Below are positions 2,814 through 26,584 of a DNA stretch of 32,000 nt, one piece after another. The notes below the pieces were generated by a model. It saw nothing but the letters and a program-made list of their open reading frames with translations, was not told where the DNA came from and searched no databases. Made by a program: the position numbers and the translations under genes. The stretch is from NCBI GenBank assembly GCA_016700015.1, contig CP064995.1:180001-212000 (forward strand). The letters are read 5' to 3'. Source of the DNA: Candidatus Saccharimonadota bacterium (GTDB lineage: Bacteria; Patescibacteriota; Saccharimonadia; Saccharimonadales; Saccharimonadaceae). Numbering within the stretch: the first letter of the stretch is position 1; each line of letters opens with the position of its first letter.

Positions 2814-2817
<4 letters not shown>

Positions 2818-3488
2818 ACCTGGGGTGCACGCGAAGCCCACACCGCCTCAAAGCCGAGTTGTATGAGTCTTGCATGCGAGCCATGTAAATGTTTCATGTC
2901 TAGCTCATCAAAGCGTAACCACTCGGCGGAACCTGGCACCGCGTCATCTCCCGCAACTGCCGGTGAAAATTCTGGATGACGGAAGAGAAAAGCAGTAGTA
3001 TGTGGCCAGGCGTTGGCTGTCTCTCGGTCGTCCCTCACAAACTCGTCGTAGAGTATTTCCCATCTATCCCTCGCTATGTTAACCGACGTCTCTTCCAGCG
3101 CTTCTCGCACAGCAGCACTATGCTTGTTTTCATAGACACCGTCAACAAGGTCGACAAACCCGCCGGGAAGCGCACGTTTTCCATTACTCTTACGTATAAT
3201 AGTCAGTACTCGGTCGTCCGCCACGCGTCCATTCTTGCCGTATTCTGTCGCAATAATAACGGGATCTACTGTGTAATTGGGCCCCCACCGATAGAATTCG
3301 CCTTTACCAAATCGTGCCCCACGCTCGCCGAGCAGAGTGAGAAATTCTGGATGTAGGGGCCTGCCTTCCGTGTCAACAATCAGGCCCCCAAGCTTAAATC
3401 TCGCCGTTTCCTCGGCAGTGGGTATGGCGATTCCTGCCGTGTCGGGAAAATACAAGCCTGCAGGAGTAAGTTCTAATTGCACTGTCAT
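2814..3488 (-). CDS. Nudix hydrolase (ADP-ribose pyrophosphatase-like), last gene of the pncA-pncB operon
   Basis: Intact Nudix box core E-x7-REALEETSV, preceded by LPGGFVDLVDGVY. Its 3' end overlaps the Ham1 gene 3' end convergently by 4 nt. No promoter-like gap to pncB. Confidence 0.8.
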
Positions 3489-3529
3489 AATATTTCTTAT
3501 ACCATAATATATAATATTTTACAATATTC

Positions 3530-4765
3530 CTAACAGGGGGCGGATACATCTTCAGTTTGAGCGGGTTGCTGCAATCTCTCTTGACGTAGTCTTTGGTAGC
3601 GCGCCACGTCGCTCAGGTTACCCATATGTTTTCCTTCGTCATCACTTAGCTTAACAGTGCCGTATCCATTTACGGCTACTGCTTTACTAACGATATTAAG
3701 ACTCGGAGTGTATGACATATTATTGGTAGTGCCGCCGCCAATTCCGAACGCTACGCCAATCTCGCCTTCAAAATGATGCTTTAGCTCGACAGCGCGCTTG
3801 CCGGTAAGGCTATTGGTAAACATGAGCGATTTTGTCTTTGGATCAATACCTAGCCGTAGTAGCTGTCGGATCACTTTCGCCCCGATTATTTCTTCCACAC
3901 CCGAATCAATACGAAAACTTTCGACTCGCTCAAACAGGTCGCGAGTCATGTCGTGCAGTGTGACGTCACTGGTGAATGTATCGATGAGTGCTACGGGCAT
4001 CGAGGGAAATCGGTCGAGCCATTCCTGGATCACCCTCGTTTGACCATCAAGTGGGTTGCCGCCGCGCTGTTCTTCGAGGGCGGCGAACACCATACTGAGC
4101 TCATGGGCATTCGTACCTATGGCAGGCACGTTATATTTTGCTGCAAGCCACGGATTTGAAGTGCCGATGAACTGCTCGGGGCACTCACTAACAAAACGCT
4201 CTACCATATGGTCTTGCCAGTGACTCGATGCGCGACGCCTCGTGCCAAATTCGGCAAATTTTATATCGTGTGTTTTCATGAGACCAATAAATTCATCGCC
4301 ACGCCGATTGCCTTCACGACACCATTCGGTGAGGGTAGTATAGTTTTTGTCGAGCAGTCGGGGATAGTATAGCTCAGGGATAGCTTGGAGCATCGGGATT
4401 TCCCACTGCGACACATCGTTCCAGGGCCCGGTTGTTTCTGCGGTGAGATCGTCGGTATCTGAATCAATACTGACGCGTATCTCGGGTAGGCGAAACGCGG
4501 CTAAATAGCCAAGGTATTCTGTCGAGTAGTTTTTGCCTTGTTGTTTCTCAAGCATTGCAAGTTCTTCAGGTGTATAGCGAAGTTTGCGTAATTCGTCGTA
4601 GTATTCTTGTAGTTCCCGCACCGAAACAAGATTTGCAATTCGCATGCCTTTTCGAGCCTTACGATTTGTCATACGAAATGTTACCTCGGCATCTGGCTCC
4701 TGCTCATGGATAAACTGTCCCATAGGAAATTTGTATTGGTCTTGGAGATTGAGTAAGTTTTCCAT
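3530..4765 (-). CDS. pncB: Nicotinate phosphoribosyltransferase
   Basis: 411 aa. The N-terminus LLNLQDQYKFPMGQ, the FGTRRR motif and GIGGG near the C-terminus are typical of PncB-type NAPRTase. Starts 2 nt after the pncA stop. Confidence 0.9.
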   Translation of the reverse strand: MENLLNLQDQYKFPMGQFIHEQEPDAEVTFRMTNRKARKGMRIANLVSVRELQEYYDELRKLRYTPEELAMLEKQQGKNYSTEYLGYLAAFRLPEIRVSIDSDTDDLTAETTGPWNDVSQWEIPMLQAIPELYYPRLLDKNYTTLTEWCREGNRRGDEFIGLMKTHDIKFAEFGTRRRASSHWQDHMVERFVSECPEQFIGTSNPWLAAKYNVPAIGTNAHELSMVFAALEEQRGGNPLDGQTRVIQEWLDRFPSMPVALIDTFTSDVTLHDMTRDLFERVESFRIDSGVEEIIGAKVIRQLLRLGIDPKTKSLMFTNSLTGKRAVELKHHFEGEIGVAFGIGGGTTNNMSYTPSLNIVSKAVAVNGYGTVKLSDDEGKHMGNLSDVARYQRLRQERLQQPAQTEDVSAPC

Positions 4766-4767
4766 TA

Positions 4768-5487
4768 CTAGCGCTCCAGTCGTCCACGGTCAATGACAAT
4801 GCTGCCATCAACAATTTCTTGACTTGTAATCGGGTGAGCACCTGCGGCTAGCATTTCGGCAAGCGCACGCGCTCCATCTTCAGGGTGAATATTCACGGCC
4901 TTCATTGCATCGGTGACTACGTAAACATCAACTATTTCTTGTGACGTGTTGTTAAGTGCATCGACGACGGTCGCTCTATCGCAGTAGTCAGTCGCTAGTC
5001 CTTGTATGAGCACGGCAATTCGATCGCCTTTCTCGGCGGCCTGGCGTGCCAAGATACCAATGGCGCGTCCGACAGTGCGTTCGCTTCTATGGAGGTGTGA
5101 TAAGGCATGAAACAATGCGCCCGTTTGGAGTTCGGCCCCCCAGCCCGAATAGCCATCATCCTCTAGGTACATGCCTTTCTGGGCGATCGTATCATCTGCA
5201 ACTACATCGAGGTTGTCGTGTAGTGCTGCACCAGCTTTGTGCTGCACACAGTGAACGGGCCATTTTTCAAAGTGTTTTTTATTATCGGGCCTATGCCAAT
5301 CTTGAGTAAAAATAACTTGTCCACTATTCTCACGTACGAATTTGTTGGTGCTATTCGCAGGATTTACAATATCTTCACCTCCGTTGACAGATAGGGCGCC
5401 AGAGGGCAGAGCAAAATCATTCTGTATATCAACATTTATGGCGATAACTTCGCTATATGTCCTAGGTAATTTATTCACTGCGTTCAT
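4768..5487 (-). CDS. pncA: Nicotinamidase / isochorismatase-family hydrolase
   Basis: INVDIQNDF...GALSV N-terminal motif, FTQDWH, and a conserved Cys context (GLATDYC) typical of PncA. SD AAAGGAG lies upstream. Confidence 0.85.
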   Translation of the reverse strand: MNAVNKLPRTYSEVIAINVDIQNDFALPSGALSVNGGEDIVNPANSTNKFVRENSGQVIFTQDWHRPDNKKHFEKWPVHCVQHKAGAALHDNLDVVADDTIAQKGMYLEDDGYSGWGAELQTGALFHALSHLHRSERTVGRAIGILARQAAEKGDRIAVLIQGLATDYCDRATVVDALNNTSQEIVDVYVVTDAMKAVNIHPEDGARALAEMLAAGAHPITSQEIVDGSIVIDRGRLER

Positions 5488-5499
5488 AGTAACTCCTTT

Positions 5500-5522
5500 G
5501 ATAATGTTGTTATCACACTATC
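5500..5522. promoter_or_regulatory. Candidate NrtR operator S1 (GATAATGT-TGTTATC-ACACTATC)
   Basis: 13/16 arm positions match the palindrome GTTAGTGT-N7-ACACTAAC. Lies between the predicted pncA -10 and the SD, 43 bp from S2. Confidence 0.5.
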
Positions 5523-5524
5523 TG

Positions 5525-5553
5525 TATATAGCATATAGTATAGTAAGTGTAAA
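5525..5553 (-). promoter_or_regulatory. Predicted pncA-pncB-nudix promoter (TTTACA-N17-TATATA on the minus strand)
   Basis: -35 is the complement of 5548-5553 and -10 the complement of 5525-5530, with a 17-nt spacer, about 38 nt upstream of ATG 5487. Confidence 0.45.
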
Positions 5554-5565
5554 AGCAACACTATT
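5543..5565. promoter_or_regulatory. Candidate NrtR operator S2 (GTAAGTGT-AAAAGCA-ACACTATT)
   Basis: 13/16 arm positions match the palindrome. Overlaps the predicted -35 of the pncA promoter. Confidence 0.5.
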
Positions 5566-5600
5566 TATATAAAATTTGTAATTAATTTATAATCTATCTT

Positions 5601-6572
5601 TTAGTGAATTATTTGACCCTGTTTTATCATTTTCTTGGCAGCAGTAAGCGATTTTGCTAACCGTTCTGAATGTGACCCCCGAACAACAAGGCAGGGAACA
5701 CGAAGCTTTGCAATATACGTCGTAAACCATCGGTGCATTTCATGCCGAATATGCTCACCGTCACGGATACCGTCTTGCACGAACGGTATTTCATCCCCAG
5801 TGATAATATAGAGGTCGGCTTTATCACGGGCGGCTATTTGCCGCATTATGCTCGTTGTTTTACCTAGGTACCGTCGCTGCCATAGTTGGGTCGCAACCGC
5901 GTTGGTGTCACACACAATCACACCCTTGCTGCGAGCGGCGATCTCTCTTTCGTAAGCTTGCTGGAGTCGTCCGATCCGATAGAAATCATCATTTTGCCAA
6001 TCGGCTCCGCAAGTGAGAATTGATTCAGTGTAGTAGCGACCAATTTCGGGCACCCAGGGTACGTGTAGCGCTTCTGCAAGATCGCGCGCGAGCGTGGTAG
6101 TGCCGGTTGATTCGGCGCCGACAACAACAATACGAAGGCAAAGCCCAGCCCGGACTTCATCACTAAGATACTGCCAGGATTCTAGCAGATTGGCGCGTAC
6201 CTTTGTTCCAGAAATTGGTACGGTCTCTCGAGCTTTGTCGACAACAACACTTCGAGCACCCATGTAATGCGCCCATGGCCCACCATAGTCCTCAGAGCTG
6301 TAGACGACATCTGGCTTGTAGCCTAAAAACTGCATCGTATGTGCTGCCCAAGCGACCGAATCATCATCGTTGTTGATATCGGGGATAATCATAACATGGG
6401 CAGATGGATGATGGGCCTGTAGCCATGCGCGACGCAACTCGGCTGCAATGTTATACGCCGGGTTGTCGACAACAAGTACGTCGACGTCATTACAATCCTT
6501 GAGCGCGGTATTGATTAAGAAATTATGGCCGAGGTGTGGTGGATAGAATTTGCCGATCACAAGTCCACGCAT
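5601..6572 (-). CDS. nadR: NadR-like NMN adenylyltransferase fused to a ribosylnicotinamide-kinase-like domain (no HTH domain)
   Basis: The N-terminal GKFYPPHLGH is the (H/T)xGH nucleotidyltransferase motif. The C-terminal P-loop-like domain VVVGAESTGTTTLARDL resembles the NadR RNK domain, but its Walker A lysine is replaced by Thr. Confidence 0.85.
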   Translation of the reverse strand: MRGLVIGKFYPPHLGHNFLINTALKDCNDVDVLVVDNPAYNIAAELRRAWLQAHHPSAHVMIIPDINNDDDSVAWAAHTMQFLGYKPDVVYSSEDYGGPWAHYMGARSVVVDKARETVPISGTKVRANLLESWQYLSDEVRAGLCLRIVVVGAESTGTTTLARDLAEALHVPWVPEIGRYYTESILTCGADWQNDDFYRIGRLQQAYEREIAARSKGVIVCDTNAVATQLWQRRYLGKTTSIMRQIAARDKADLYIITGDEIPFVQDGIRDGEHIRHEMHRWFTTYIAKLRVPCLVVRGSHSERLAKSLTAAKKMIKQGQIIH

Positions 6573-6574
6573 GG

Positions 6575-7111
6575 CTAAGTGCTCCTTTCTCTAATAAGAC
6601 TAATTGCTTCGCTGAGTCTTTCGTTTCGCGCCGCTGATTCGACGACAGCGTAGGGAAGTTGGTATCGCTCACACAGATCAATCCAGTAGTCGTCGTGGCT
6701 TTCTCGTGTGTCACCGCCATAGCGCAAAGGGTCTGGTTCAAACGGTATGTTGCTTTTTGTGATGAGGTATAGGTTTGACTTGAGGCTTGCCGCATCTTGT
6801 TCCAGGAGCTTGGGGCAGTCGCGAATTACTGGTCTCACGTGTGGCAGCTGCCAATAGCCTACAGTAGCGTAAAGGTCGGTATCCTGTATAACGATGCTTT
6901 GTAGTGAACGTCGAGCTTCATGCTGAAGTGCGCGCTGCCCCCACCAGATCGCCTTCATTGACTTAGGGGTCACTTGTCCATCTGTCGTTTCTAGGTAACT
7001 TCGCGCAAACTCTGGGACCCAGTTGGCGCTTAACTGCTGTGCAAGTTCTCGTGACAGGCAGGTTTTGCCAGTTGATTCGGCGCCAATGATTGTGACAATA
7101 AATGGTATCAT
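6575..7111 (-). CDS. Stand-alone NadR-C-terminal-like P-loop ATPase (putative ribosylnicotinamide kinase)
   Basis: Intact Walker A IIGAESTGKTCL followed by WVPEFARSYLE, as in NadR RNK domains. Start set to ATG 7111 (MIPFIVT...), which is preceded by AAGGAGG with a 6-nt spacer. The pnuC stop TAG lies inside that spacer. Confidence 0.75.
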   Translation of the reverse strand: MIPFIVTIIGAESTGKTCLSRELAQQLSANWVPEFARSYLETTDGQVTPKSMKAIWWGQRALQHEARRSLQSIVIQDTDLYATVGYWQLPHVRPVIRDCPKLLEQDAASLKSNLYLITKSNIPFEPDPLRYGGDTRESHDDYWIDLCERYQLPYAVVESAARNERLSEAISLIRERST

Positions 7112-7112
7112 G

Positions 7113-7829
7113 CTATGCCTCCTTGAGTGCTTTGGTGGTGGGAGCATCTAGCGCGTCGCTCATCTGCTTGCTCCGATGCCATACCACATAGCCATAGACG
7201 GTGTTGGCGAGAAAAAGTACGTATTGAAGCGCCACAAGTGGCAAGCCGGTGGTGGCATAGGTATAGATAGCGAATACATTGACGACTGCCCAGACAATCC
7301 AGTTTTCGAGCTTCTTATTGTCGAGGAGGAACTGAGCGAGAATTGTCGCAGCTAGCACCATTGCGTCTGTCCACGCCATCGCACCGCCAAGTCGCTGACT
7401 GATGAGCGCGGCGCCAGTATACCCAAGAAGTGAGACTAATAAATATACTGGGATCCACCGTAATTGTACATGGCTAACACGGCGGGTATCTATGTCCTTA
7501 CGCCAGCGAATCCAACCGTAAATAAGGGTTGGTGTGAGATACGCGTTGAGGATGGCGCTGGACAGCAATCCGCTCTGGAGAAAGAGAACAGCGTAGGCGG
7601 CCGTACTGACTGCTCCGATGGGATAGTTCGCTCGCCGCTCCTTCACGCATAAGTAGGTGCTTGCATACGACGTAAAGACGGCGAATACCTCAAGCCAGTT
7701 AAGATTGGTAATCCATTGTGCCGCGATTGCCACGCAATAGGAGAGCGTGGTGAGCACTACTCCGACTAATAGGCTTTCCGCAAGATCGCGCTTTGCACTA
7801 ATGCGTGTGATGGTAAGTAGCTGCTTCAT
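7113..7829 (-). CDS. pnuC: Nicotinamide riboside transporter PnuC
   Basis: 238 aa polytopic membrane protein. WLEVFAVFTSYASTYLCVKERRANYPIG and the W-rich TM helices are typical of the PnuC family. SD GAAAGGG lies upstream. Confidence 0.9.
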   Translation of the reverse strand: MKQLLTITRISAKRDLAESLLVGVVLTTLSYCVAIAAQWITNLNWLEVFAVFTSYASTYLCVKERRANYPIGAVSTAAYAVLFLQSGLLSSAILNAYLTPTLIYGWIRWRKDIDTRRVSHVQLRWIPVYLLVSLLGYTGAALISQRLGGAMAWTDAMVLAATILAQFLLDNKKLENWIVWAVVNVFAIYTYATTGLPLVALQYVLFLANTVYGYVVWHRSKQMSDALDAPTTKALKEA

Positions 7830-7846
7830 AATATGCCCTTTCTGTA

Positions 7847-7869
7847 CTTATTGTACGTAATACACTAAC
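7847..7869. promoter_or_regulatory. Candidate NrtR operator S3 (CTTATTGT-ACGTAAT-ACACTAAC)
   Basis: 14/16 arm positions match the palindrome. Sits immediately downstream of the predicted pnuC -10, over the TSS and leader, 43 bp from S4. Confidence 0.5.
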
Positions 7870-7876
7870 TATTCTC

Positions 7877-7905
7877 AGTCTAACGTAGAGTTATTGTTTT
7901 GTCAA
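7877..7905 (-). promoter_or_regulatory. Predicted pnuC-rnk-nadR promoter (TTGACA-N17-TAGACT on the minus strand)
   Basis: -35 is the complement of 7900-7905 and -10 the complement of 7877-7882, with a 17-nt spacer. Confidence 0.45.
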
Positions 7906-7912
7906 CACTATT
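7890..7912. promoter_or_regulatory. Candidate NrtR operator S4 (GTTATTGT-TTTGTCA-ACACTATT)
   Basis: 13/16 arm positions match. The pnuC -35 hexamer overlaps the spacer and right arm, and the right arm touches the -35 of the divergent histidine-phosphatase promoter. Confidence 0.5.
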
Positions 7913-7939
7913 TACAAATATGGTGAAATACGTTATGAT
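7911..7939 (+). promoter_or_regulatory. Predicted promoter of the histidine-phosphatase/ADP-ribosylglycohydrolase operon (TTTACA-N17-TATGAT)
   Basis: -35 at 7911-7916, -10 at 7934-7939, 17-nt spacer, about 29 nt upstream of ATG 7968. SD TAGGAG at about 7951. Confidence 0.45.
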
Positions 7940-7967
7940 GTTGGCATAGATAGGAGTAATCACTGCC

Positions 7968-8870
7968 ATGACAATGCCTAGGCGTCTTGTTCAGGTCCGG
8001 CACGGACAATCAGAGGCAAATGTAGTCCAAAAGGAGTTGCTGCCCGACCTTGATCCAGTGGTTGCCGCAGAGATTATGAATCGTCCTGACTGGGAGCAAC
8101 GTCTATCACCACTTGGGATCGAGCAGGCAAAAATTGCGGGTGATTGGATTCGGCACCATATTGGTTCACTCGCAAGTTTTGACGTTATATATGTCTCGCC
8201 ATTTATGCGCACGTTTGAGACGGCATGTTATGCGGCGGGAGACGAAGAGGTGCAATTTACCCCAGAAGATCGGATTATTGAGCGTGACTGGGGCCTCTAT
8301 GGTAAGTTATCGAAGGCTGATCAAAAACGCTTTTACCCAGAGACCTATCGTAACAAGAAGGAGAACCCACTCTATGCTCGGCTGGATGGCGGGGAGAGTC
8401 AAATGGATTCTTACTTACAGATTCGTGATATCAATGGCACTATGCACCGAGAATACCCGAGCGGAAGAGTACTCATGTTCGGTCACGGTGACAAGCTTGC
8501 AATGTATCGCTATGTTCTCGAGCGCATGCTTCCTGAAGAGTGGGTTAAGATGGTGCAGGATTCCTTCTTTGATATTCGAAACTGTACGGTAATTGACTGG
8601 ACGCGTGATAACCCGGGGGACCCTGGTGACGTACGTGAAAAGATTAACTGGATGCGCATTGTCCATCCCACGGTACCCGGACTTTCGCCATTTGGTGGTG
8701 AATGGGTTGAGCTTACTGGCAAGCGTACCTATTCGGTACGCGAAGGGCTGGCTCGCGTAGCAACATCGTCGACACTCCTGCCTGATGGCTTGCTTGATCG
8801 ATTGAGACAGATTGAGGCGCGCAAGATTGCAGATGATGCGGAGAACTTTAGGAGAGAGGGTCGTATATGA
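7968..8870 (+). CDS. Histidine phosphatase family (phosphoglycerate-mutase-like) protein
   Basis: N-terminal catalytic RHG motif (LVQVRHGQSEAN) and a second His context (FGHGD). 300 aa. Substrate not inferable from sequence. Confidence 0.8.
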   Translation: MTMPRRLVQVRHGQSEANVVQKELLPDLDPVVAAEIMNRPDWEQRLSPLGIEQAKIAGDWIRHHIGSLASFDVIYVSPFMRTFETACYAAGDEEVQFTPEDRIIERDWGLYGKLSKADQKRFYPETYRNKKENPLYARLDGGESQMDSYLQIRDINGTMHREYPSGRVLMFGHGDKLAMYRYVLERMLPEEWVKMVQDSFFDIRNCTVIDWTRDNPGDPGDVREKINWMRIVHPTVPGLSPFGGEWVELTGKRTYSVREGLARVATSSTLLPDGLLDRLRQIEARKIADDAENFRREGRI

Positions 8871-9856
8871 ATTCGTGGCGCGCAATAGGTGAGCAGCTAT
8901 TGCCTGCGATTGCCTATGGTGATGCGGCGGGACTACCGGTCGAGACACGTAGCGCCAAATACATCACTGATCATTATGGTCATATTGATCGTCTTTTACC
9001 AAGCAAAGAAAACCCATTTTATCAAGGTGAATTTCAGCCAGGTACCTGGAGTGACGACACACAACTAAGTCTGGTGGTCGCGCGTAGTCTTAGCCGTGTT
9101 GGGGCGTTTGATATACGAGATATTGCCAATCTTCATGTTCAGGCCTATGGTGAGACCGAACAGGTCATCCGTAAAGGCCAGGTGGTAAAGCGTGGCTGGG
9201 GCGGCTCAACAACCCGGAGTGTTGAGCGGTATATGAGCGGTATTGCGGCAGAGCAGTGTGGCGAAGTCCAGGGCAAGGGAAACGGTGTCATTATGAAGCT
9301 AGCCCCACTCGTCTATTGGCATGAAGTACGTGGTGTTGATCGCGTAGAAGCTTACCGTGACTGTGATCAACTAACGGCATTTACCCATAATCATGTCACC
9401 GCGAAAGTTGCTTCGAGAGTTCACCACGACGTACTGAGCTACTTGATGCACATGCCGTATGAACAAGACGATTTTGTGCGCTTTGTGCTTGAAAGCGCAA
9501 AGTATCATGAATACCTACTGGGTGATCGCTCGAATGACATCTCAAGCGAGCTTGCTTACCTCAATGAGCATTTCTATTTCGATACCGATAGTATTCTTCG
9601 TAATACTGATGGAAGAGGTTTTGTTGTGTCGCAGACTCTTGCAATGGCATATGGTGCATTTTTAGCCCACGATGGCGAATTCGTGACGAGTGTCTACGAA
9701 GCGGTCAACCTGGGGGGCGACACCGACAGTACTGCTTCAATCGTGGCAGCGATGACAGTTATGAAAAACCGAGGAGTGTTTGAAAAACCGCACGATTACG
9801 AGACCACTCTCAACCATGATATGCTTTGTGAAGTATCATGTGCGCTTAGCTGTTAA
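8867..9856 (+). CDS. ADP-ribosylglycohydrolase family protein (DraG/ARH-like)
   Basis: ATG 8867 overlaps the upstream stop (ATGA). Family motifs are AYGDAAGLPVE, WSDDTQL and GGDTDSTASIVAAM (metal-binding Asp/Thr cluster). Confidence 0.85.
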   Translation: MNSWRAIGEQLLPAIAYGDAAGLPVETRSAKYITDHYGHIDRLLPSKENPFYQGEFQPGTWSDDTQLSLVVARSLSRVGAFDIRDIANLHVQAYGETEQVIRKGQVVKRGWGGSTTRSVERYMSGIAAEQCGEVQGKGNGVIMKLAPLVYWHEVRGVDRVEAYRDCDQLTAFTHNHVTAKVASRVHHDVLSYLMHMPYEQDDFVRFVLESAKYHEYLLGDRSNDISSELAYLNEHFYFDTDSILRNTDGRGFVVSQTLAMAYGAFLAHDGEFVTSVYEAVNLGGDTDSTASIVAAMTVMKNRGVFEKPHDYETTLNHDMLCEVSCALSC

Positions 9857-10530
9857 TCAAAACTACGAGAGAGAACTTCGAGTGATTCATTATTGAAGGC
9901 GTAGAGTTTCGCTGGTCGATGTGCGCCCTCTCGCCACATATCAGGTGTTTCATGGATCAGGCCAAGGCTTAGGAATTTTTTACGAAAATTTCGTTTATCA
10001 AGTACGCGTCCTATAACCGCTTCGTACGCAGTTTGCAGCTGACTCAGAGTAAATTTTTTGTCGAGCAAGCCTGACACGGCATTAGTATAGGTAAGTTTCG
10101 CGCTCAGTCGTGCGCGCGCGTATCGAATAATCTCTGCAGGATCATAGGCGAGGCTAGGAAGTTTGTCGACCGGGTAAAATGTCGATATTTGCTCGGCGGA
10201 TTTTGGAATAATATTGCGACCACACCCCATGTAGGTTACTGATACCGCATGACCGCGCGGATCACGGGCGACCGTGTCGAAGGTGTACAGCTGTTCGATG
10301 TAGGCAAGGTCATTATCGAGGTCCACACCAGTCTTGCGTTTCACAACCACAGAGAGAGCCTCAATCGTTGTACTACCCGCAGCGTTGTAACCCCCTGGGA
10401 GTGCCCATTCTCCACGGAATGGATCATCACTTCGCTGAGTGAGCAACACTACAAGTTCATCACCAAGTAGTTGAAAAACTACCACATCAACAGTCAATGT
10501 CGGGGGAATATAGGGCGTGCTGTACTTCAT
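9853..10530 (-). CDS. nrtR: NrtR-like regulator: degenerate Nudix domain plus C-terminal winged-helix domain
   Basis: The Nudix-fold N-terminus has a degenerate box (GGYNAAGSTTIEALSVVVKRKTGVD, lacking the REUXEE glutamates). The C-terminus FTLSQLQTAYEAVIGRVLDKRNFRKKFLSLGLIHET...HRPAKLYAF resembles the NrtR DNA-binding domain as I recall it. Confidence 0.75.
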   Translation of the reverse strand: MKYSTPYIPPTLTVDVVVFQLLGDELVVLLTQRSDDPFRGEWALPGGYNAAGSTTIEALSVVVKRKTGVDLDNDLAYIEQLYTFDTVARDPRGHAVSVTYMGCGRNIIPKSAEQISTFYPVDKLPSLAYDPAEIIRYARARLSAKLTYTNAVSGLLDKKFTLSQLQTAYEAVIGRVLDKRNFRKKFLSLGLIHETPDMWREGAHRPAKLYAFNNESLEVLSRSFD

Positions 10531-10575
10531 ACACTAAGTCTACAATAGAATATGCAGCTTGAAAAGGTGTGTTTA

Positions 10576-11379
10576 CTAAAACGCTACTGGATTCTCTCGT
10601 TTGTGCGCGGTCGCATCGTATTTACGTTCGATCACTGTTGCTATTGTGTCTACCATCTCTTTCCCCTCAAGGTAATCGTCAATACTGCTGTAGGTTAGTC
10701 CGAGTTCAGTCTCATCGGGCTGTGAAGGAGTGCCATCGAGCAGGTCGGCGGTTGGCGCTTTTGAAGTAAACACTTCTGGTACCCCTAGATATCTTAACAA
10801 TTGTCGCCCTTGGCGCTTGTTAAGCGTTGAAATTGGAGCTACGTCTGCTGCACCATCACCGAATTTTGTAAAAAAGCCTACCAAAGCTTCGGCTGCGTGA
10901 TCAGTACCAAGCACCAACATATTGTGCATGCCAGCAAGGGCGTATTGGGCTACCATACGTGATCTAGCCTTGGCATTGCCTTTGTGAAAATCAGTCAGAT
11001 TCTCCATAGTTGCGCTATCGTATGTTGTAGCGAATGCGTCTACCATTGGCTTTATATTAAAATCGATTACTCGATCAGGTTTAATGACGTTTATTGCCAA
11101 TTCAGCGTCAAGCCGGTCACTCTGGTCGCCATATGGCAATAGCATTGCGCAAAATTGTGCTGTATAGCCTTCGGCTCTGCTGAGAACTGCGGCTCGTTGT
11201 GCGAGAAGTCCCACGAGAAGAGAGTCTTGTCCGCCAGATACACCGAGTACAAACCCTGCTTTACTATTTTCGCGTAGATAATCCGCAAGCTGACGAGTTC
11301 GCCGTTCGATTTCTTCTTTTGGTTCGATCGACGGTTTTACCCCTAAAGTTGTTATGATTTCATGCTGACGCTCACACAT
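10576..11379 (-). CDS. nadE: NH3-dependent NAD+ synthetase
   Basis: PP-loop SGGQDS (VLGVSGGQDSLL). 267 aa, the typical single-domain NadE length. C-terminal KRENP-type motif. SD AAAGGA upstream. Confidence 0.92.
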   Translation of the reverse strand: MCERQHEIITTLGVKPSIEPKEEIERRTRQLADYLRENSKAGFVLGVSGGQDSLLVGLLAQRAAVLSRAEGYTAQFCAMLLPYGDQSDRLDAELAINVIKPDRVIDFNIKPMVDAFATTYDSATMENLTDFHKGNAKARSRMVAQYALAGMHNMLVLGTDHAAEALVGFFTKFGDGAADVAPISTLNKRQGRQLLRYLGVPEVFTSKAPTADLLDGTPSQPDETELGLTYSSIDDYLEGKEMVDTIATVIERKYDATAHKRENPVAF

Positions 11380-11393
11380 GACGCATCCTTTCT

Positions 11394-11416
11394 GTTAGTG
11401 TACTATACACACTAAC
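11394..11416. promoter_or_regulatory. Candidate NrtR operator S6 (GTTAGTGT-ACTATAC-ACACTAAC), perfect 8-bp arms
   Basis: Perfect inverted repeat with a 7-nt spacer. Overlaps the predicted nadE -10 by 2 nt and covers its TSS. Also fills the -35/-10 spacer of a divergent plus-strand TATAAT promoter. Confidence 0.6.
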
Positions 11417-11422
11417 TATAAT
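11395..11422 (+). promoter_or_regulatory. Possible promoter of the divergent membrane-protein gene (weak -35 TTAGTG, N16, perfect TATAAT)
   Basis: TATAAT at 11417-11422 directly abuts the operator right arm. The -35 region is the operator left arm. Confidence 0.35.
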
Positions 11423-11476: not shown

Positions 11477-12259
11477 ATGAGTAGCTGGTATACTGTGTGT
11501 ATGCGACATATAAACAAAAACACACTCTATTGCTTTTCGCCACCAGTGATGTTGGCGACATTTGCCATCGAAATTAGTCTTGCTGCCTATGTTACATGGC
11601 GCTATAAATTGACGAGTATTACAAAGCTTGCTGTTTCGATCCTGTTCTTTCTCGCTGTCTTTCAGCTTGCTGAATACAATGTGTGTGAAGGAAGTTTTGG
11701 CGTCGATAGTTTGTCGTGGTCAAGACTCGGTTATATAGCGATCACGATGCTACCGCCACTGGGCTTTCATTTGGCAACCCGGCTAGCGGGTAGGCGTGAT
11801 ACGGTAGCAGTAGCAATCGGCTATACAATGGCTGGAATGTTTGCTGCTTTTTTTATGTTTGCTGGTAATGGGTTGACGGCAAGTGCTTGCCTCGGCAATT
11901 ACGTCATATTCAAAACCGCACCTGGCACATCGACGCTCTACGGTCTTTACTACTACGGCTGGTTAATTGTAGGCACCGTCTATTGCTGGATGATGGCCAA
12001 ACGACAGGCCAAACCTAACCAAGCGGCCGCACTGCGCGCTTTGATGGTGGGCTATTTGGCTTTCATTACTCCTACTACATTTGTTAATATCGTCAATCCA
12101 GAAACAGTAGCCGGCATACCCTCTATTATGTGTGGATTTGCCGTCTTGCTTGCGATTATTTTAGCCGGTGAGGTGATTCCAAAGTACTATAAAATGCCCG
12201 GCATTCTTCAATTTTCGGGTGTAGCAAGAGGAAGAGCAAATGCGAAAACTGCCAAATAG
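11477..12259 (+). CDS. Polytopic membrane protein of unknown function (about 7 hydrophobic segments)
   Basis: 260-aa ORF with regularly spaced hydrophobic helices. No family recognised. An alternative ATG lies at 11501. Divergent from nadE. Confidence 0.6.
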   Translation: MSSWYTVCMRHINKNTLYCFSPPVMLATFAIEISLAAYVTWRYKLTSITKLAVSILFFLAVFQLAEYNVCEGSFGVDSLSWSRLGYIAITMLPPLGFHLATRLAGRRDTVAVAIGYTMAGMFAAFFMFAGNGLTASACLGNYVIFKTAPGTSTLYGLYYYGWLIVGTVYCWMMAKRQAKPNQAAALRALMVGYLAFITPTTFVNIVNPETVAGIPSIMCGFAVLLAIILAGEVIPKYYKMPGILQFSGVARGRANAKTAK

Positions 12260-12599
12260 TACTCGTAAAATACTCATTGGATTTTCCGGATGGGCCGTTC
12301 TGCTTGTGGGTGTCATTATGATTCCTTACCCTGGTCCCGGTTGGGTAGTAGTGTTTATTGGATTATCTATTCTCGCGACTGAATTTGAATGGGCAAGCGA
12401 TGCTCATAACTATGTTCATACAAAATATGATGCTTGGCAGAAGTGGCTTGTTTCGCAGCCATTTTTTATTAAAGCTTTATTTTGGTGTCTGACAGCACTG
12501 ACGGTTGTTGTGACCGTGTGGCTTCTCAACGGCTACGGTTTGCTTGCCAGTTGGGCCGGACTTAATCTGCCGTGGCTTAACTCACCGCTTGTAAGGTAG
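12240..12599 (+). CDS. PGPGW-motif small membrane protein (TIGR02611-like)
   Basis: The motif IPYPGPGWVVVFIGLSILATEFEWA is characteristic of the PGPGW transmembrane family. Overlaps the upstream gene by 20 nt. Confidence 0.65.
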   Translation: MRKLPNSTRKILIGFSGWAVLLVGVIMIPYPGPGWVVVFIGLSILATEFEWASDAHNYVHTKYDAWQKWLVSQPFFIKALFWCLTALTVVVTVWLLNGYGLLASWAGLNLPWLNSPLVR

Positions 12600-12610: not shown

Positions 12611-14410
12611 ATGGCAAAACGCAAAATGTCAACTAAGCAGGTTTTGACAGCGCTCTGGAGTGTTGCTCGTACGACCTATAAGGCGTCACCCATTGCGGTA
12701 GCACTTAAACTTGTGGGCGCAGTGATTGAGGCAATTCTGCCGATTACGATAGCTTATTTTGCTGCTGCAACAACAACAGCGCTTGTGGCGGCGTATTCAG
12801 GAGATGCTGCGGCCGGCCGAACAGCACTTACCTACGTATTTATAACAGCCATGCTTGGGCTTATATCGACAGCCTGGGGCAGTATTTCACGCTATATTGG
12901 AGAGCTGGCCAAGTATAAGATTGACGCCGAAATTACCGACAGCCTATACTGTCATTTTGTTGAGCTAGAGTACTGGTATTATGACGACAAAGAAACGGCA
13001 GATCTGTTCGATAAAGCGCAAAATTTTGCCTTTTATTTTTCGCGATTTTTCGACGATATCGCGAGTATGCTGAGTGGCATTTTGCGTGCAGTCGTAGCCA
13101 TCATCGCTGTATCATCCGTTGCTTGGTGGATGTCGCCTCTCCTTGTCGCAGCTGTTATACCAAGCATGTATTTCCAGTTTAGGCTTTCGAGAATGCAGAG
13201 CGCACACTGGAAAGAAAACGTTGTCACGCGTCGGACGATGAGTCAGATTAAATGGAGTGTCTTCCAGTCGCGCAATATTGCCGAGCTACGCATCTATGGA
13301 CTGGTAAAATATATGCTAAACTGGCACGCCGATTTGCGCGCTCAAGACGAAAAAACGCGTATTGATTTTGAGCGAAGCTATATTGGTAAGCGTCTTTTGG
13401 CGCAACTGCTGGAAGCTTTTGTAGAAGTAGGAGCACTGATATACGTGGTACTAGAGATTATTGCGCGTCGCCAGGCGGTAGGACAGTTTTTGTATGCTCA
13501 GCAAATGGTCTCGCAGACGCTATCAGGCACCCGCGAGGTGATTAGTCGCTTTAGCGGAATGGATGAGGATCTGGCGACGCTTTTTGACTATGAAGCATTC
13601 ATGAAACTTACAAAAAACACTGGCGCTGGCACTATATTGAAGTCTGTTCCTGGCCGGATACGGCTCGAACACGTCTCATTCACGTATCCGCAGTCAAAAG
13701 CCCGCGTACTAAACGATATTAGCTTTGCTATCGAGACCAATCAGCATATAGCCATTGTCGGCGAAAATGGCGCTGGAAAAAGTACTCTCATTAAACTTAT
13801 TCTTGGCATATACCGTCCGACTAGGGGCAAGATATTTCTTGACGGTAAGAATCTAGCGGGGGTACAGTTGTCTTCTTGGCATGCCATGTTGGGTGTGTTG
13901 AAGCAAGATTATCTGAGCTTTTGGTTTACGACCGCACGCAACAATGTGGCTTTTGGGGACGTTTCTCGTCCGTACGATGAAGATCGATTCCAGCAGGCAC
14001 TTGTTCGCGCTGAGGCAAAGAGTTTCGTTGACAGACTTCCGCAAGGTTCTGACACCTTTGTTGATAAGTGGGCTGAAGACGATGACGGTAACCCGGGCAC
14101 TGATTTATCTGGGGGACAATGGCAACGCCTTGTACTGGCCCGCAACTTTTATCGAAATAGCCCAATTATTATTCTCGATGAACCGACCAGTGCAATTGAT
14201 GCGCTCGCTGAGGCGCGTATATTCGACCATTTGTTTGCCGATAAAAACCGCACGGTAATTACGATTAGCCATCGATTGACAACTGTCCAGAAAGCAGACG
14301 TGATCTATATGATGAAGGCGGGGAGAATTGTTGAATCAGGGACACATACCGAGCTTGTGAAGTTGCGTGGTGAATACTACACCATGTTCAAAGCACAACT
14401 ACACGAATAA
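12611..14410 (+). CDS. ABC transporter, fused permease/ATP-binding protein (exporter type)
   Basis: N-terminal 6-TM-like region. Walker A GENGAGKST, signature LSGGQWQR, Walker B IIILDEPTSAID, H-loop ISHR. Confidence 0.9.
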   Translation: MAKRKMSTKQVLTALWSVARTTYKASPIAVALKLVGAVIEAILPITIAYFAAATTTALVAAYSGDAAAGRTALTYVFITAMLGLISTAWGSISRYIGELAKYKIDAEITDSLYCHFVELEYWYYDDKETADLFDKAQNFAFYFSRFFDDIASMLSGILRAVVAIIAVSSVAWWMSPLLVAAVIPSMYFQFRLSRMQSAHWKENVVTRRTMSQIKWSVFQSRNIAELRIYGLVKYMLNWHADLRAQDEKTRIDFERSYIGKRLLAQLLEAFVEVGALIYVVLEIIARRQAVGQFLYAQQMVSQTLSGTREVISRFSGMDEDLATLFDYEAFMKLTKNTGAGTILKSVPGRIRLEHVSFTYPQSKARVLNDISFAIETNQHIAIVGENGAGKSTLIKLILGIYRPTRGKIFLDGKNLAGVQLSSWHAMLGVLKQDYLSFWFTTARNNVAFGDVSRPYDEDRFQQALVRAEAKSFVDRLPQGSDTFVDKWAEDDDGNPGTDLSGGQWQRLVLARNFYRNSPIIILDEPTSAIDALAEARIFDHLFADKNRTVITISHRLTTVQKADVIYMMKAGRIVESGTHTELVKLRGEYYTMFKAQLHE

Positions 14411-22100: not shown

Positions 22101-23120
22101 ATGACTCGAAAAACCGTACTATTACTATTCGGCGGAGAGTCGTCTGAACACGATGTATCTATTATGGGTGCGCGTAATGTGTATGCGGCGATGGATGGTG
22201 ACAAATACCAAGTGCTGCTGTGCTATATTGATCGGCAAGGAAAATGGTGGCTACTCGATAGTTGGCAAGATAGTCTATCCCAGCACGGTGGCGTGCAGCT
22301 GCTTGTTGCACCCGGAAGCGGAAGCTTAATGACCTTGCCGGGAAATACTATTATTCATCCGCATGTCATATTGCCTATTCTGCACGGTAAAAATGGTGAG
22401 GATGGCACCGTACAGGGCTTGGCAGCACTAGCGCATATACCGATTGTCGGGTGCGACACGACAGCAAGCAGCGTTTGTATGGACAAAGTATTAACCAAGC
22501 AGGTGCTCGAGGCAAGCGGGATTCGCACCGCACCATTTATCGTCTATCGGCGCGGAGATACCAAGCCTGGATACGAAGTTGTCGCGGAACGGTTGGGTAC
22601 AGTATTGTTTATTAAGCCCTCACGCGCGGGTAGCTCAGTCGGCGTATCCAAAGCGCGCACTGCAACCGAATTTGCTGCAGCCCTTAAGCTTGCGCTCGAA
22701 TATGATGACACGGTGCTTATTGAAAAAGCAATTGTTGGTCGTGAGCTTGAAACGGCCATCCTTGGAAACCCGCCACACCATAAAGTAAGTGGAATTGGAG
22801 AAATTATTACAGGTGCGGAATTTTATGACTACAACGATAAATATGCACCTGATAGTACGGCGCAAGTCTTAACGAACGTAGAGTTAGCAGATGGAGTTGA
22901 AGAGAAAATCCGCACCACGTCTTTGAATGTATATACAGTTCTTGGCTGTAAAGGGTTGGCACGAGTAGATTATTTACTTGAAGGCAATACGCCCTACGTC
23001 ATTGAGGTGAATACGCTACCGGGGTTTACCAATATCAGTATGTATCCCAAGTTATGGCGTGCGGCAGGTATGCACTATCCGGAGCTGATCGATGCGCTTA
23101 TCGCTAATGCGCTGAAATGA
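22101..23120 (+). CDS. ddl: D-alanine--D-alanine ligase
   Basis: LLFGGESSEHDVS N-terminus, HGKNGEDGTVQGL, and an ATP-grasp region ending EVNTLPGFT. Confidence 0.93.
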   Translation: MTRKTVLLLFGGESSEHDVSIMGARNVYAAMDGDKYQVLLCYIDRQGKWWLLDSWQDSLSQHGGVQLLVAPGSGSLMTLPGNTIIHPHVILPILHGKNGEDGTVQGLAALAHIPIVGCDTTASSVCMDKVLTKQVLEASGIRTAPFIVYRRGDTKPGYEVVAERLGTVLFIKPSRAGSSVGVSKARTATEFAAALKLALEYDDTVLIEKAIVGRELETAILGNPPHHKVSGIGEIITGAEFYDYNDKYAPDSTAQVLTNVELADGVEEKIRTTSLNVYTVLGCKGLARVDYLLEGNTPYVIEVNTLPGFTNISMYPKLWRAAGMHYPELIDALIANALK

Positions 23121-23148
23121 TATAGTGTAGGTATAACAAGGAGGAAAT

Positions 23149-23928
23149 ATGGAAGTAATTGTAGGCTTAATGACATTGGTATTCCCAGGGTTTATATTTT
23201 TATTGATATTTTTGTTCAGTGGACTCAAGATTGTTAACCAGTATGAGCGTGGTGTTGTACTGACTCTTGGTAAATATACTGGTGTACGCGAGCCGGGTCT
23301 TCGCTATATCGTGCCTATTTTTCAAAAAATGATGCGTGTAGATGTACGCAGCATGCCTATTGATGTACCAAAACAAGAAGTTATTACGAAAGATAATGTG
23401 ACGATTGGTGTCGATGCGGTAGTATATCTGCGTGTCGTCGATAGCGCCAAAGCCATGCTTGAAACCACCAACTATGTCTATGCGACAAGCCAGTTTGCCC
23501 AGGCGGCGCTGCGTGACGTGACGGGCGGTGCCGACCTTGATGAGCTGCTTGCCAGCCGTGAAGCAATTAGCGAAAAGATCAAGGAAATTGTCGACAGCGA
23601 AACCGACAAGTGGGGTATTGATGTCGAGAATGTCAAAGTACAGAATATTGAACTCCCACAAGAAATGAAGCGAGCTATGGCCAAGCAGGCCGAAGCCGAG
23701 CGTGAGCGACGTGCCAAGATTATTGCCGCTGAAGGTGAGCAAATGAGTGCCAAGAAGCTTGGTGAGGCCGCTGATATCATTGCTGCGCACCCGATTGCGC
23801 TACAGCTACGCAACTTGCAGGTCTTGACCGAAATCGCTGTCGAAAAAAACAGTACCATTATCTTCCCAAACCAGTTCATGGACACGGTCGACAGCGTGAA
23901 GAAATTCATGGCAAAAGAAACAAACTAG
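23149..23928 (+). CDS. SPFH/band-7 (stomatin/prohibitin-like) membrane protein
   Basis: N-terminal TM helix, then IVNQYERGVVLTLGKY...EPGL and a Glu/Ala-rich coiled coil (AMAKQAEAERERRAKIIAAEGE). SD AAGGAGG upstream. Confidence 0.9.
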   Translation: MEVIVGLMTLVFPGFIFLLIFLFSGLKIVNQYERGVVLTLGKYTGVREPGLRYIVPIFQKMMRVDVRSMPIDVPKQEVITKDNVTIGVDAVVYLRVVDSAKAMLETTNYVYATSQFAQAALRDVTGGADLDELLASREAISEKIKEIVDSETDKWGIDVENVKVQNIELPQEMKRAMAKQAEAERERRAKIIAAEGEQMSAKKLGEAADIIAAHPIALQLRNLQVLTEIAVEKNSTIIFPNQFMDTVDSVKKFMAKETN

Positions 23929-26198: not shown

Positions 26199-26584
26199 TG
26201 AACGATATCCTAGACGCTGAGTTTGACACAATGATTACGCAGGCGATGGATGAATTGCCTCAGGAATATATAAAAAACCTGAATAATGTTGTTATTACAT
26301 TTGCCGACGAACCAACCGCTCAACAGCTACAGAAGCAGGGTGTGCGCAGTGGCCAGCTGCTACTCGGACTTTACGAAGGCATTCCGCAAACCTCGCGACT
26401 TAGCTCGAGCTATAGCGGTATATTGCCAGATAAAATTACACTCTTTAAACTACCGCTCTGCATGACTTCTCGTGATGCAGGGGAACTTTTTCAACAGGTA
26501 AAGCGAACCTTGTGGCATGAGATCGCACATCACTATGGGCTAAAGTATGAACATATCGATAAGCGCGAACGACGTCATGGCTAG
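26198..26584 (+). CDS. Minimal zinc metallopeptidase family protein (Zincin_1/DUF1025-like)
   Basis: C-terminal HEIAHHYG (HExxH) motif and an N-terminal FDTMITQAMDELPQEY...NVVITFADEP layout typical of this ~120-aa family. Confidence 0.8.
   Translation: MNDILDAEFDTMITQAMDELPQEYIKNLNNVVITFADEPTAQQLQKQGVRSGQLLLGLYEGIPQTSRLSSSYSGILPDKITLFKLPLCMTSRDAGELFQQVKRTLWHEIAHHYGLKYEHIDKRERRHG

Follow-up and report, generated by a model that had tools for sequence, protein, structure and literature searches.

In a 32-kb stretch of a Candidatus Saccharimonadota genome (contig CP064995.1, positions 180,001 to 212,000; hereafter the window, with positions counted from its first letter), every promoter region of a compact cluster of genes for the salvage of nicotinamide adenine dinucleotide (NAD) holds copies of one 23-bp palindrome, and a gene for a regulator of the NrtR family (nrtR, 9853-10530, minus strand, 225 amino acids) lies inside the same cluster. 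We consider it very probable that six sites, one of them degenerate, are the operators of this NrtR protein, a repressor that would control the whole NAD-salvage cluster. Saccharibacteria and other members of the candidate phyla radiation (CPR) have tiny genomes with few regulators and take cofactor precursors from host cells. To our knowledge, almost nothing is known about the control of transcription in CPR bacteria.

Palindromic sites and promoter geometry

An earlier note on this DNA had described five 23-bp sites, and direct reading of the sequence returned all of them with the same coordinates and letters. S1 (5500-5522) is GATAATGTTGTTATCACACTATC, composed of GATAATGT-TGTTATC-ACACTATC; S2 (5543-5565) is GTAAGTGTAAAAGCAACACTATT, composed of GTAAGTGT-AAAAGCA-ACACTATT and reading AATAGTGTTGCTTTTACACTTAC on the minus strand; S3 (7847-7869) is CTTATTGTACGTAATACACTAAC, or CTTATTGT-ACGTAAT-ACACTAAC; S4 (7890-7912) is GTTATTGTTTTGTCAACACTATT, or GTTATTGT-TTTGTCA-ACACTATT; and S6 (11394-11416) is GTTAGTGTACTATACACACTAAC, or GTTAGTGT-ACTATAC-ACACTAAC, a perfect palindrome. 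All five have the form 8-N7-8 with TGT-N7-ACA in the middle and match the published description of the family palindrome (about 21 bp, GT-N7-AC). As the note had also said, TGT-N7-ACACTA is invariant (5/5 sites), the spacer is always 7 nt (5/5), and the start-to-start offset is exactly 43 bp for both S1/S2 and S3/S4.

The consensus GTTAGTGT-N7-ACACTAAC, with up to three mismatches allowed, matches the 32 kb five times, at S1-S4 and S6 only, where shuffled sequences lead one to expect 0.15 matches. The shorter pattern TGT-N7-ACACTA has eight strand-specific matches (0.18 expected) at seven distinct places, because the perfect S6 scores on both strands; beyond the five sites, its matches are partial sites at 10516-10538 and 23120-23142. 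A position weight matrix (PWM) was built from the five sites, and its scores across the window were compared with the maxima of shuffled sequence. No further match in the 32-kb window rose above the shuffle range. The next-best stretch, 26282-26304 (PWM score 13.8, about the 95th percentile of the shuffle maxima) lies within an open reading frame (ORF) and was rejected. Full palindromes are thus confined, as claimed earlier, to three intergenic regions, which are the three promoter regions of the NAD cluster.

The genes, identified with NCBIfam and Pfam, form four putative transcription units. The operon pncA-pncB-nudix (2814-5487, minus strand) consists of pncA (4768-5487), pncB (3530-4765) and a Nudix hydrolase with an intact REALEE box (2814-3488), and the operon pnuC-AAA_28-nadR (5601-7829, minus strand) of pnuC (7113-7829), an AAA_28 kinase-like gene (6575-7147) and a NadR-type nicotinamide mononucleotide adenylyltransferase/ribosylnicotinamide kinase without helix-turn-helix domain (5601-6572). 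Divergent from pnuC, on the plus strand, runs His_Phos_1-draG (7968-9856), which encodes a His_Phos_1 phosphatase of 300 amino acids (7968-8870) and an ADP-ribosylglycohydrolase (draG, 8867-9856). The fourth unit, on the minus strand, begins with nadE, the NH3-dependent NAD synthetase (10576-11379), and continues with nrtR; as S6 precedes it, nrtR belongs to its own putative regulon.

Promoter hexamers were taken as consensus matches from a scan, not as mapped starts. On the minus strand, nadE has TTGACT (11443-11438), 17 nt and TATAGT (11420-11415), and pnuC has TTGACA (7905-7900), 17 nt and TAGACT (7882-7877); on the plus strand, His_Phos_1 has TTTACA (7911-7916), 17 nt and TATGAT (7934-7939). 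The pncA promoter, TTGCTT (5558-5553), 17 nt and TATGCT (5535-5530) on the minus strand, was read by hand and lies below the scan threshold (8/12). The spacer region of S2, the promoter-distal site at pncA, contains the -35-like TTGCTT, and that of S4 contains the -35 of pnuC. S4 also overlaps 2 nt of the -35 of the divergent His_Phos_1-draG unit and is therefore common to two promoters. The promoter-proximal sites S1 (pncA-pncB-nudix) and S3 (pnuC-AAA_28-nadR) both begin 8 nt past the -10 hexamer and extend to 4-6 nt from the Shine-Dalgarno (SD) sequence; S1 spans the predicted transcript from about +1 to +23, leaving 4 nt to the SD. S6, the single site at nadE-nrtR, shares the final 2 nt of the -10 and extends across the predicted start. 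Predicted starts fall near 5523, 7870 and 11408 (minus strand) and at about 7946 (plus strand). When the three upstream regions are aligned, S1, S3 and S6 stand in the same register relative to the SD. The hexamer matches thus agree with the earlier description, in which one site of each pair sits on the -35 and the other between -10 and SD, with S6 on the -10 and start of nadE. One site on the -35 and another on the start site fits repression by occlusion.

The sixth site, S5 (10516-10538), lies over the start codon of nrtR and is degenerate, reading CTTAGTGT-ATGAAGT-ACAGCACG on the minus strand; it is probably the site whose number the earlier note skipped. It retains the 5' arm and the core TGT-N7-ACA in full; its 3' arm lies within coding sequence. 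A near-identical counterpart exists in Candidatus Saccharimonas aalborgensis (6000-6022 of our locus L154, PWM score 14.4), and several relatives carry full sites directly upstream of nrtR. Weak autoregulation is one role that S5 may have, and a roadblock between nadE and nrtR is another.

The NrtR protein and its predicted DNA contacts

The gene product of 9853-10530, named earlier as the obvious candidate for the regulator, indeed belongs to the NrtR family. It consists of a NUDIX domain (PF00293, residues 13-133) and the NrtR_WHD domain (PF21906, residues 155-212, E 1.3e-23), and it matches characterized family members over its full length (AraR of Bacteroides thetaiotaomicron, BtAraR, 5BS6, the best match in the structural database, E 4.6e-29; NrtR of Shewanella, SoNrtR, 3GZ5, E 1.4e-24). 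Its closest regulator homologues are from Candidatus Saccharibacteria, with 91% identity for the top match and 81% for the protein of Ca. S. aalborgensis. The Nudix box is degenerate, with VKRKTG in place of REUXEE (GGYNAAGSTTIEALSVVVKRKTGV, without the REUXEE glutamates), and the domain is therefore to be regarded as a sensor, not an enzyme.

The recognition helix, D178-K-R-N-F-R-K184, and the wing residue R205 are invariant among the homologues. In the structure of BtAraR with DNA, four residues of the helix (K179, R180, N181 and K184) and two of the wing (K204 and R205) "define the GTGT motif" (PMC4666351). K179, R180, N181, K184 and R205 are identical in the window protein and BtAraR, and the BtAraR operators that were validated by electrophoretic mobility shift assay (AAGAGTGTATTTGATACACC, AAAAGTGTTACTTTTACACCC and AAAGTGTAAAAAAGACACTT) all have the form AGTGT-N7-ACAC (PMC4666351). 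This structural comparison suggests that the bases invariant in the five sites would be the ones that the BtAraR helix contacts in the solved complex. The motif of the family as a whole is a 21-bp palindrome with the core GT-N7-AC (PMC2330246), and the mycobacterial NrtR site likewise has the form 8-N7-8 (PMC6800001). Our comparison covered the published family core and the BtAraR, mycobacterial and streptococcal sequences.

Sites in relatives and in other phyla

Eighty genomic loci were fetched by alignment of NrtR, with DKRNFRKK among the search patterns, so that all were chosen through nrtR. Scanning related genomes with the PWM from the window, as the earlier note had proposed, gave 52 sites with scores of at least 15 in the 18 loci from Saccharibacteria (302 kb), compared with 0.45 in locally shuffled sequence. 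Intergenic DNA holds 49 of the 52, and the remaining three lie within artefactual ORFs. Despite rearranged gene order, related sites occur upstream of pncA-pncB(-nudix), of pnuC-nadR, and of NH3- or glutamine-dependent nadE(-nrtR); they also adjoin nadD, SIR2, NAD kinase, Nudix, His_Phos_1, draG and nrtR genes. Tandem sites are followed by the same pncA-pncB-nudix order in loci L002-L012, and homologues of His_Phos_1 and draG adjoin sites in L002, L006, L007 and L010-L012. The consensus of the 52 sites is again GTTAGTGT-N7-ACACTAAC. The core TGT-N7-ACA is kept in 48/52 and TTGAC is carried by 22/52, the S4-type variant with embedded TTGACA being the commonest type of site in the relatives.

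The complete genome of Ca. S. aalborgensis (CP005957.1) has an orthologous cluster, with its sites at orthologous positions: one at pncA, two at pnuC (43 bp apart), one at the ATG of nrtR and two at nadE (39 bp apart). In L154, which is taken from this genome, S1 corresponds to 2894-2916 and S3 to 5171-5193, and the nadE sites are found at 6895 and 6934. These last two are the equivalent of S6 and a second site on the -35; the nadE promoter in the window has lost the -35 site which Ca. S. aalborgensis retains. The His_Phos_1-draG operon, which in the window stands between pnuC and nrtR, is absent from the Ca. S. aalborgensis cluster.

The spacing of the pairs bears on the mode of binding. The earlier note had proposed a dimeric repressor that acts by promoter occlusion, possibly with cooperative binding. 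In favour of two NrtR dimers that bind in helical phase, 43 bp or about four turns apart, with the phasing essential, both window pairs and the pnuC pair of Ca. S. aalborgensis are spaced by exactly 43 bp. Other family members also have tandem sites, namely SoNrtR at prs-nadV and BtAraR, where the gap is 3 bp or 42 nt. However, orthologous pairs are 33, 34, 36, 37, 39-44 and 47-50 bp apart, half-turn offsets included, and nadE in the window and pncA in Ca. S. aalborgensis have one site each. The spacing also follows from the promoter geometry, with the -35 in the first site, a 17-bp spacer, the -10 and then the second site. As the 43-bp spacing is not conserved, four-turn cooperative binding lacks comparative support, and we consider essential phasing unlikely. 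The occlusion part of the proposal agrees with the placement of the sites relative to -35 and start; what the relatives preserve is a layout in which the -35 carries one site and the start region the other.

The same 52 sites speak to the question whether the palindromes act in RNA, as hairpins in 5' leaders that affect mRNA stability or translation. Since the proximal sites begin at about +1, hairpins of 8-9 bp and -8 to -10 kcal/mol would stand at the head of the pncA and nadE mRNAs, and the S1 and S6 leaders do fold into 5'-terminal hairpins (-8.1 and -10.1 kcal/mol; z about -2.7 to -2.8). The S3 leader, however, forms no hairpin (z -0.9), and S2 and S4 lie upstream of the predicted starts and contain the -35 hexamer. 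Moreover, the related sites conserve specific bases (G, T and A/C at 70-100%) and not covarying pairs, with GTGT and ACAC in both arms in only 20/52, and there is neither a terminator-like run after the sites nor an Rfam match. A role in RNA is highly improbable on these grounds, and the hairpin may be a by-product of the palindrome. A NAD-responsive riboswitch was also considered and rejected, as the leaders gave no Rfam covariance match; across the whole window, the Rfam search returned three tRNAs only at the gathering score, and no riboswitch or other element. The predicted 5' hairpins themselves (5488-5523 and 11380-11416, minus strand) could stabilize the 5' ends of the transcripts, although they are likely a by-product of the palindrome.

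Since the 80 loci had all been selected via nrtR, a gene-free scan was added, in which a collection of metagenomes was searched with the composite -35/operator 21-mer TTAGTGTTGACAATACAHTWA and no gene served as reference. The scan returned 72 loci, and the downstream gene could be called in 67, as pncA (34), nrtR (13), pnuC (7), glutamine-dependent nadE (1), DUF7736 (5), or as other or unclassified (7). NAD genes and nrtR together account for 55/67. Within the reach of these scans, the motif is uncommon and shows strong enrichment at NAD genes, which answers the concern in the earlier note that the opposite might be the case. The genes for the DUF7736 proteins (about 150 amino acids; on metagenome contigs L087, L097, L119, L129 and L148, none in the window) are preceded by a tandem pair of NrtR sites and a conserved leader of about 170-190 nt, and may be regarded as candidates for new members of the NrtR regulon.

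Most of the 80 loci with DKRNFRKK carry TAGTGT-N7-ACACTA sites, often directly upstream of nrtR, as in about 22 of the 58 loci from outside the Saccharibacteria. Some are in contigs of Planctomycetota, Acidobacteriota and Verrucomicrobiota with a GC content of 55-70%, where AT-rich palindromes are very unlikely to arise by chance, and in contigs labelled Woesearchaeota, Nomurabacteria and Victivallales the helix, the motif and NAD-salvage genes are clustered. The motif is not specific to this lineage; it accompanies the DKRNFRKK helix across many phyla. It is therefore probably the operator that a widespread NrtR subfamily recognizes, rather than a novelty of this lineage.

This distribution argues against two other explanations of the sites. 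Short palindromic repeats in intergenic DNA are typical of repetitive extragenic palindromic (REP) sequences and miniature inverted-repeat transposable elements (MITEs), and the sites might be copies of such a small repeated or mobile element. We regard this as vanishingly improbable, given that only the 23-bp core is shared while the flanks differ, that the positions relative to -35, -10 and SD are fixed, and that in distant phyla, too, the sites precede the same gene families. It is also very unlikely that the sites serve another factor encoded outside the window (NiaR-like or of an unfamiliar type), with NrtR a mere neighbour. The analysis covers 32 kb of the genome and NrtR binding is something that we infer, which is what keeps this explanation in view; against it, the motif tracks nrtR across phyla, often directly upstream of the gene, and NrtR has the same DNA-reading residues as BtAraR, for which the crystal structure shows recognition of GTGT-N7-ACAC. 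The NadR homologue of the cluster (5601-6572) does not qualify as such a factor, as it has no helix-turn-helix domain, and the box of enterobacterial NadR is TGTTTA-N6-TAAACA.

A broader view, in which the operators of the NAD cluster are bound by NrtR as proposed, would be that DKRNFRKK as helix and TTAGTGT-N7-ACACTAA as operator, whose spacer often holds the -35, form a frozen pairing that travels with NAD-salvage clusters through CPR bacteria, DPANN metagenome-assembled genomes and several other phyla, and that in Saccharibacteria it is the main switch for precursors of NAD from the host. We put this forward tentatively, as a possibility that we ourselves find doubtful. If true, the regulon would mark uncharacterized players, namely the pair of His_Phos_1 phosphatase and ADP-ribosylglycohydrolase, the DUF7736 proteins of relatives and possibly, as precursor transporter, the conserved membrane protein encoded divergently from nadE. 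Several contigs labelled as DPANN or other archaea (L025, L039, L044, L048, L061, L070 and L079) encode an NrtR with DKRNFRKK and carry the same palindrome, together with clustered pncA, pncB, nadE, pnuC, nadR, draG and nadD. This suggests that the module may be common to, or transferred between, CPR bacteria and DPANN archaea.

Proposed regulation, known systems and neighbouring genes

The regulation that we propose for the window would work as follows. A dimer of NrtR would set its two recognition helices, through K179, R180, N181 and K184, on GTGT and ACAC, with 7 bp between them. Of two dimers at pncA and at pnuC, one would occupy the site that contains the -35 and the other the region from about +1 to +23, while at nadE a single site over the end of the -10 and the start site would be filled. 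Occupancy of S4 would also touch the -35 of the divergent His_Phos_1-draG unit. Occupied sites would block the binding and the escape of RNA polymerase. Accumulation of a NAD-derived ligand, most likely ADP-ribose, would make the winged helices rotate, so that the repressor comes off the DNA. Its release would induce the salvage of nicotinamide and nicotinate, the uptake and conversion of nicotinamide riboside, the final amidation step, the Nudix hydrolase and nrtR itself. A feedback loop could result, as the intact Nudix hydrolase could remove ADP-ribose and the ADP-ribosylglycohydrolase could produce it.

ADP-ribose is our best guess for the effector by analogy with SoNrtR, syNrtR and MsNrtR, all of which are released from DNA by this ligand. 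The ADP-ribose contacts R41 and R98 of SoNrtR are kept in the window protein as R33 and R92, and R89 is also conserved. Several observations weigh against this choice, or against the reading of the sites as NrtR operators more generally. The counterpart of SoNrtR N43 is D35, and that of K76 seems to be D70, in a loop whose alignment is unsure. The ligand-contacting His131 is replaced by proline (codon 131 at 10138-10140, minus strand), whereas histidine is found at this position in 21/21 aligned homologues, in SoNrtR and in BtAraR, where it contacts the ligand; among the sequences compared, proline is seen in this genome alone. Pro131 may affect how the effector is sensed, or it may reflect a sequence variant or error. 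The window protein is slightly closer in sequence to the arabinose-responsive BtAraR than to SoNrtR, and NdnR, another member of the NrtR family, is reported to respond to NAD and not to ADP-ribose (PMC4666351). Beyond the effector, the promoter hexamers are consensus matches only, with 8/12 for the pncA pair, and the count of sites covers 32 kb of this genome. For this organism we infer the binding, the sign of regulation and the effector.

The system resembles the known NrtR regulons (PMC2330246; SoNrtR, 3GZ5/3GZ6/3GZ8; syNrtR; MsNrtR, PMC6800001). These likewise combine a Nudix-like sensor with a winged helix, and a palindrome of 21-23 bp with GT-N7-AC (8-N7-8 in mycobacteria) with targets in NAD synthesis and salvage, including nadE, pncA/pncB, pnuC/nadR and draG. 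The regulator gene within its own regulon, the tandem sites and the degenerate Nudix box are also shared; the box is degenerate in most, not all, characterized members. In contrast to these regulons, the host here is a Saccharibacterium (CPR/Patescibacteria), the regulon comprises salvage only, and the protein has proline for His131. The arms are TTAGTGT/ACACTAA, unlike the mycobacterial arms (GTTTTCGA) and the Streptococcus motif, which also differs (PMC6800001).

With BtAraR (5BS6/5DD4/5DDG/5DEQ; PMC4666351) the system has in common an identical helix D-K-R-N-F-R-K, the same Arg205 and the same core AGTGT-N7-ACAC(T), and the BtAraR operators likewise occur in tandem, including a variant with a 42-nt gap. 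BtAraR, however, senses L-arabinose and controls arabinose-utilization genes, whereas the targets in the window are NAD genes. Its nucleotide pocket is filled (Gly89, Phe36, Leu67), whereas the window protein has Arg92 at the position of Gly89, as does SoNrtR with Arg98, and Asp35 at that of Phe36. An arabinose regulon of the BtAraR type was rejected for these differences in targets and pocket. Enterobacterial NadR, too, is a repressor that uses a palindromic operator on genes of NAD synthesis and salvage, including pnuC and pncB, but its 18-bp box differs from the sites here in sequence and spacer, and the homologue in the window is an adenylyltransferase and kinase only.

In the literature that we searched, no paper joins NrtR with Saccharibacteria, TM7 or Patescibacteria. 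Rodionov et al. (PMC2330246) described such regulons in 2008, with structures following in 2009 and 2015. What we describe is a known kind of regulation in an under-studied, genome-reduced phylum. The support from comparative data is unusually clean, but it involves no new mechanism and is not surprising to a specialist. It does provide a testable predicted regulon of six sites, four transcription units and one regulator, supplies usable promoter and operator parts, and points to the likely -35/-10 architecture in the phylum. Because it shares helix and core with Bacteroides AraR, it also serves as an example, within the NrtR family, of conserved DNA specificity while effector and regulon change.

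Several minor observations concern the putative regulon in relatives. There, a SIR2 deacetylase, a NAD kinase and a nadD-like adenylyltransferase divergent from nadE would also belong to it (sites at L006 17368-17431, at L020 8053-8075, and upstream of nadE in L002, L006, L007 and L011); a tblastn search of the window found none of the three genes. Directly 3' of nrtR, some loci have small ORFs of 73-88 amino acids that are preceded by tandem sites and a strong SD and belong to no Pfam family (L013 10822-11088, L015 7009-7230, L016 3686-3919).

Other genes flank the NAD cluster in the window. On the plus strand, ligA (146-2266) and a Ham1-like gene (2263-2817) precede it, and a conserved membrane protein without Pfam family is encoded divergently from nadE (11477-12259, plus strand; 260 amino acids, multi-pass, probable start 11501). 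A perfect plus-strand TATAAT (11417-11422) abuts S6 ahead of this gene, with no -35 to go with it, and the gene is followed by PGPGW (12240-12599) and ABC-ATPase (12611-14410) genes. The protein, which was considered as a possible member of the regulon, is conserved in Saccharibacteria. Its gene is syntenic with nadE in the S. aalborgensis lineage alone, and more distant relatives lack this synteny; that it transports a NAD precursor is speculation. Finally, the partial site at 23120-23142, a half-site with one good arm and the ACA core (ATATAGTGT-N7-ACAAGG), was set aside as a probable chance match. Its neighbours are ddl (22101-23120) and an SPFH/Band 7 gene (23149-23928), whose SD it overlaps.

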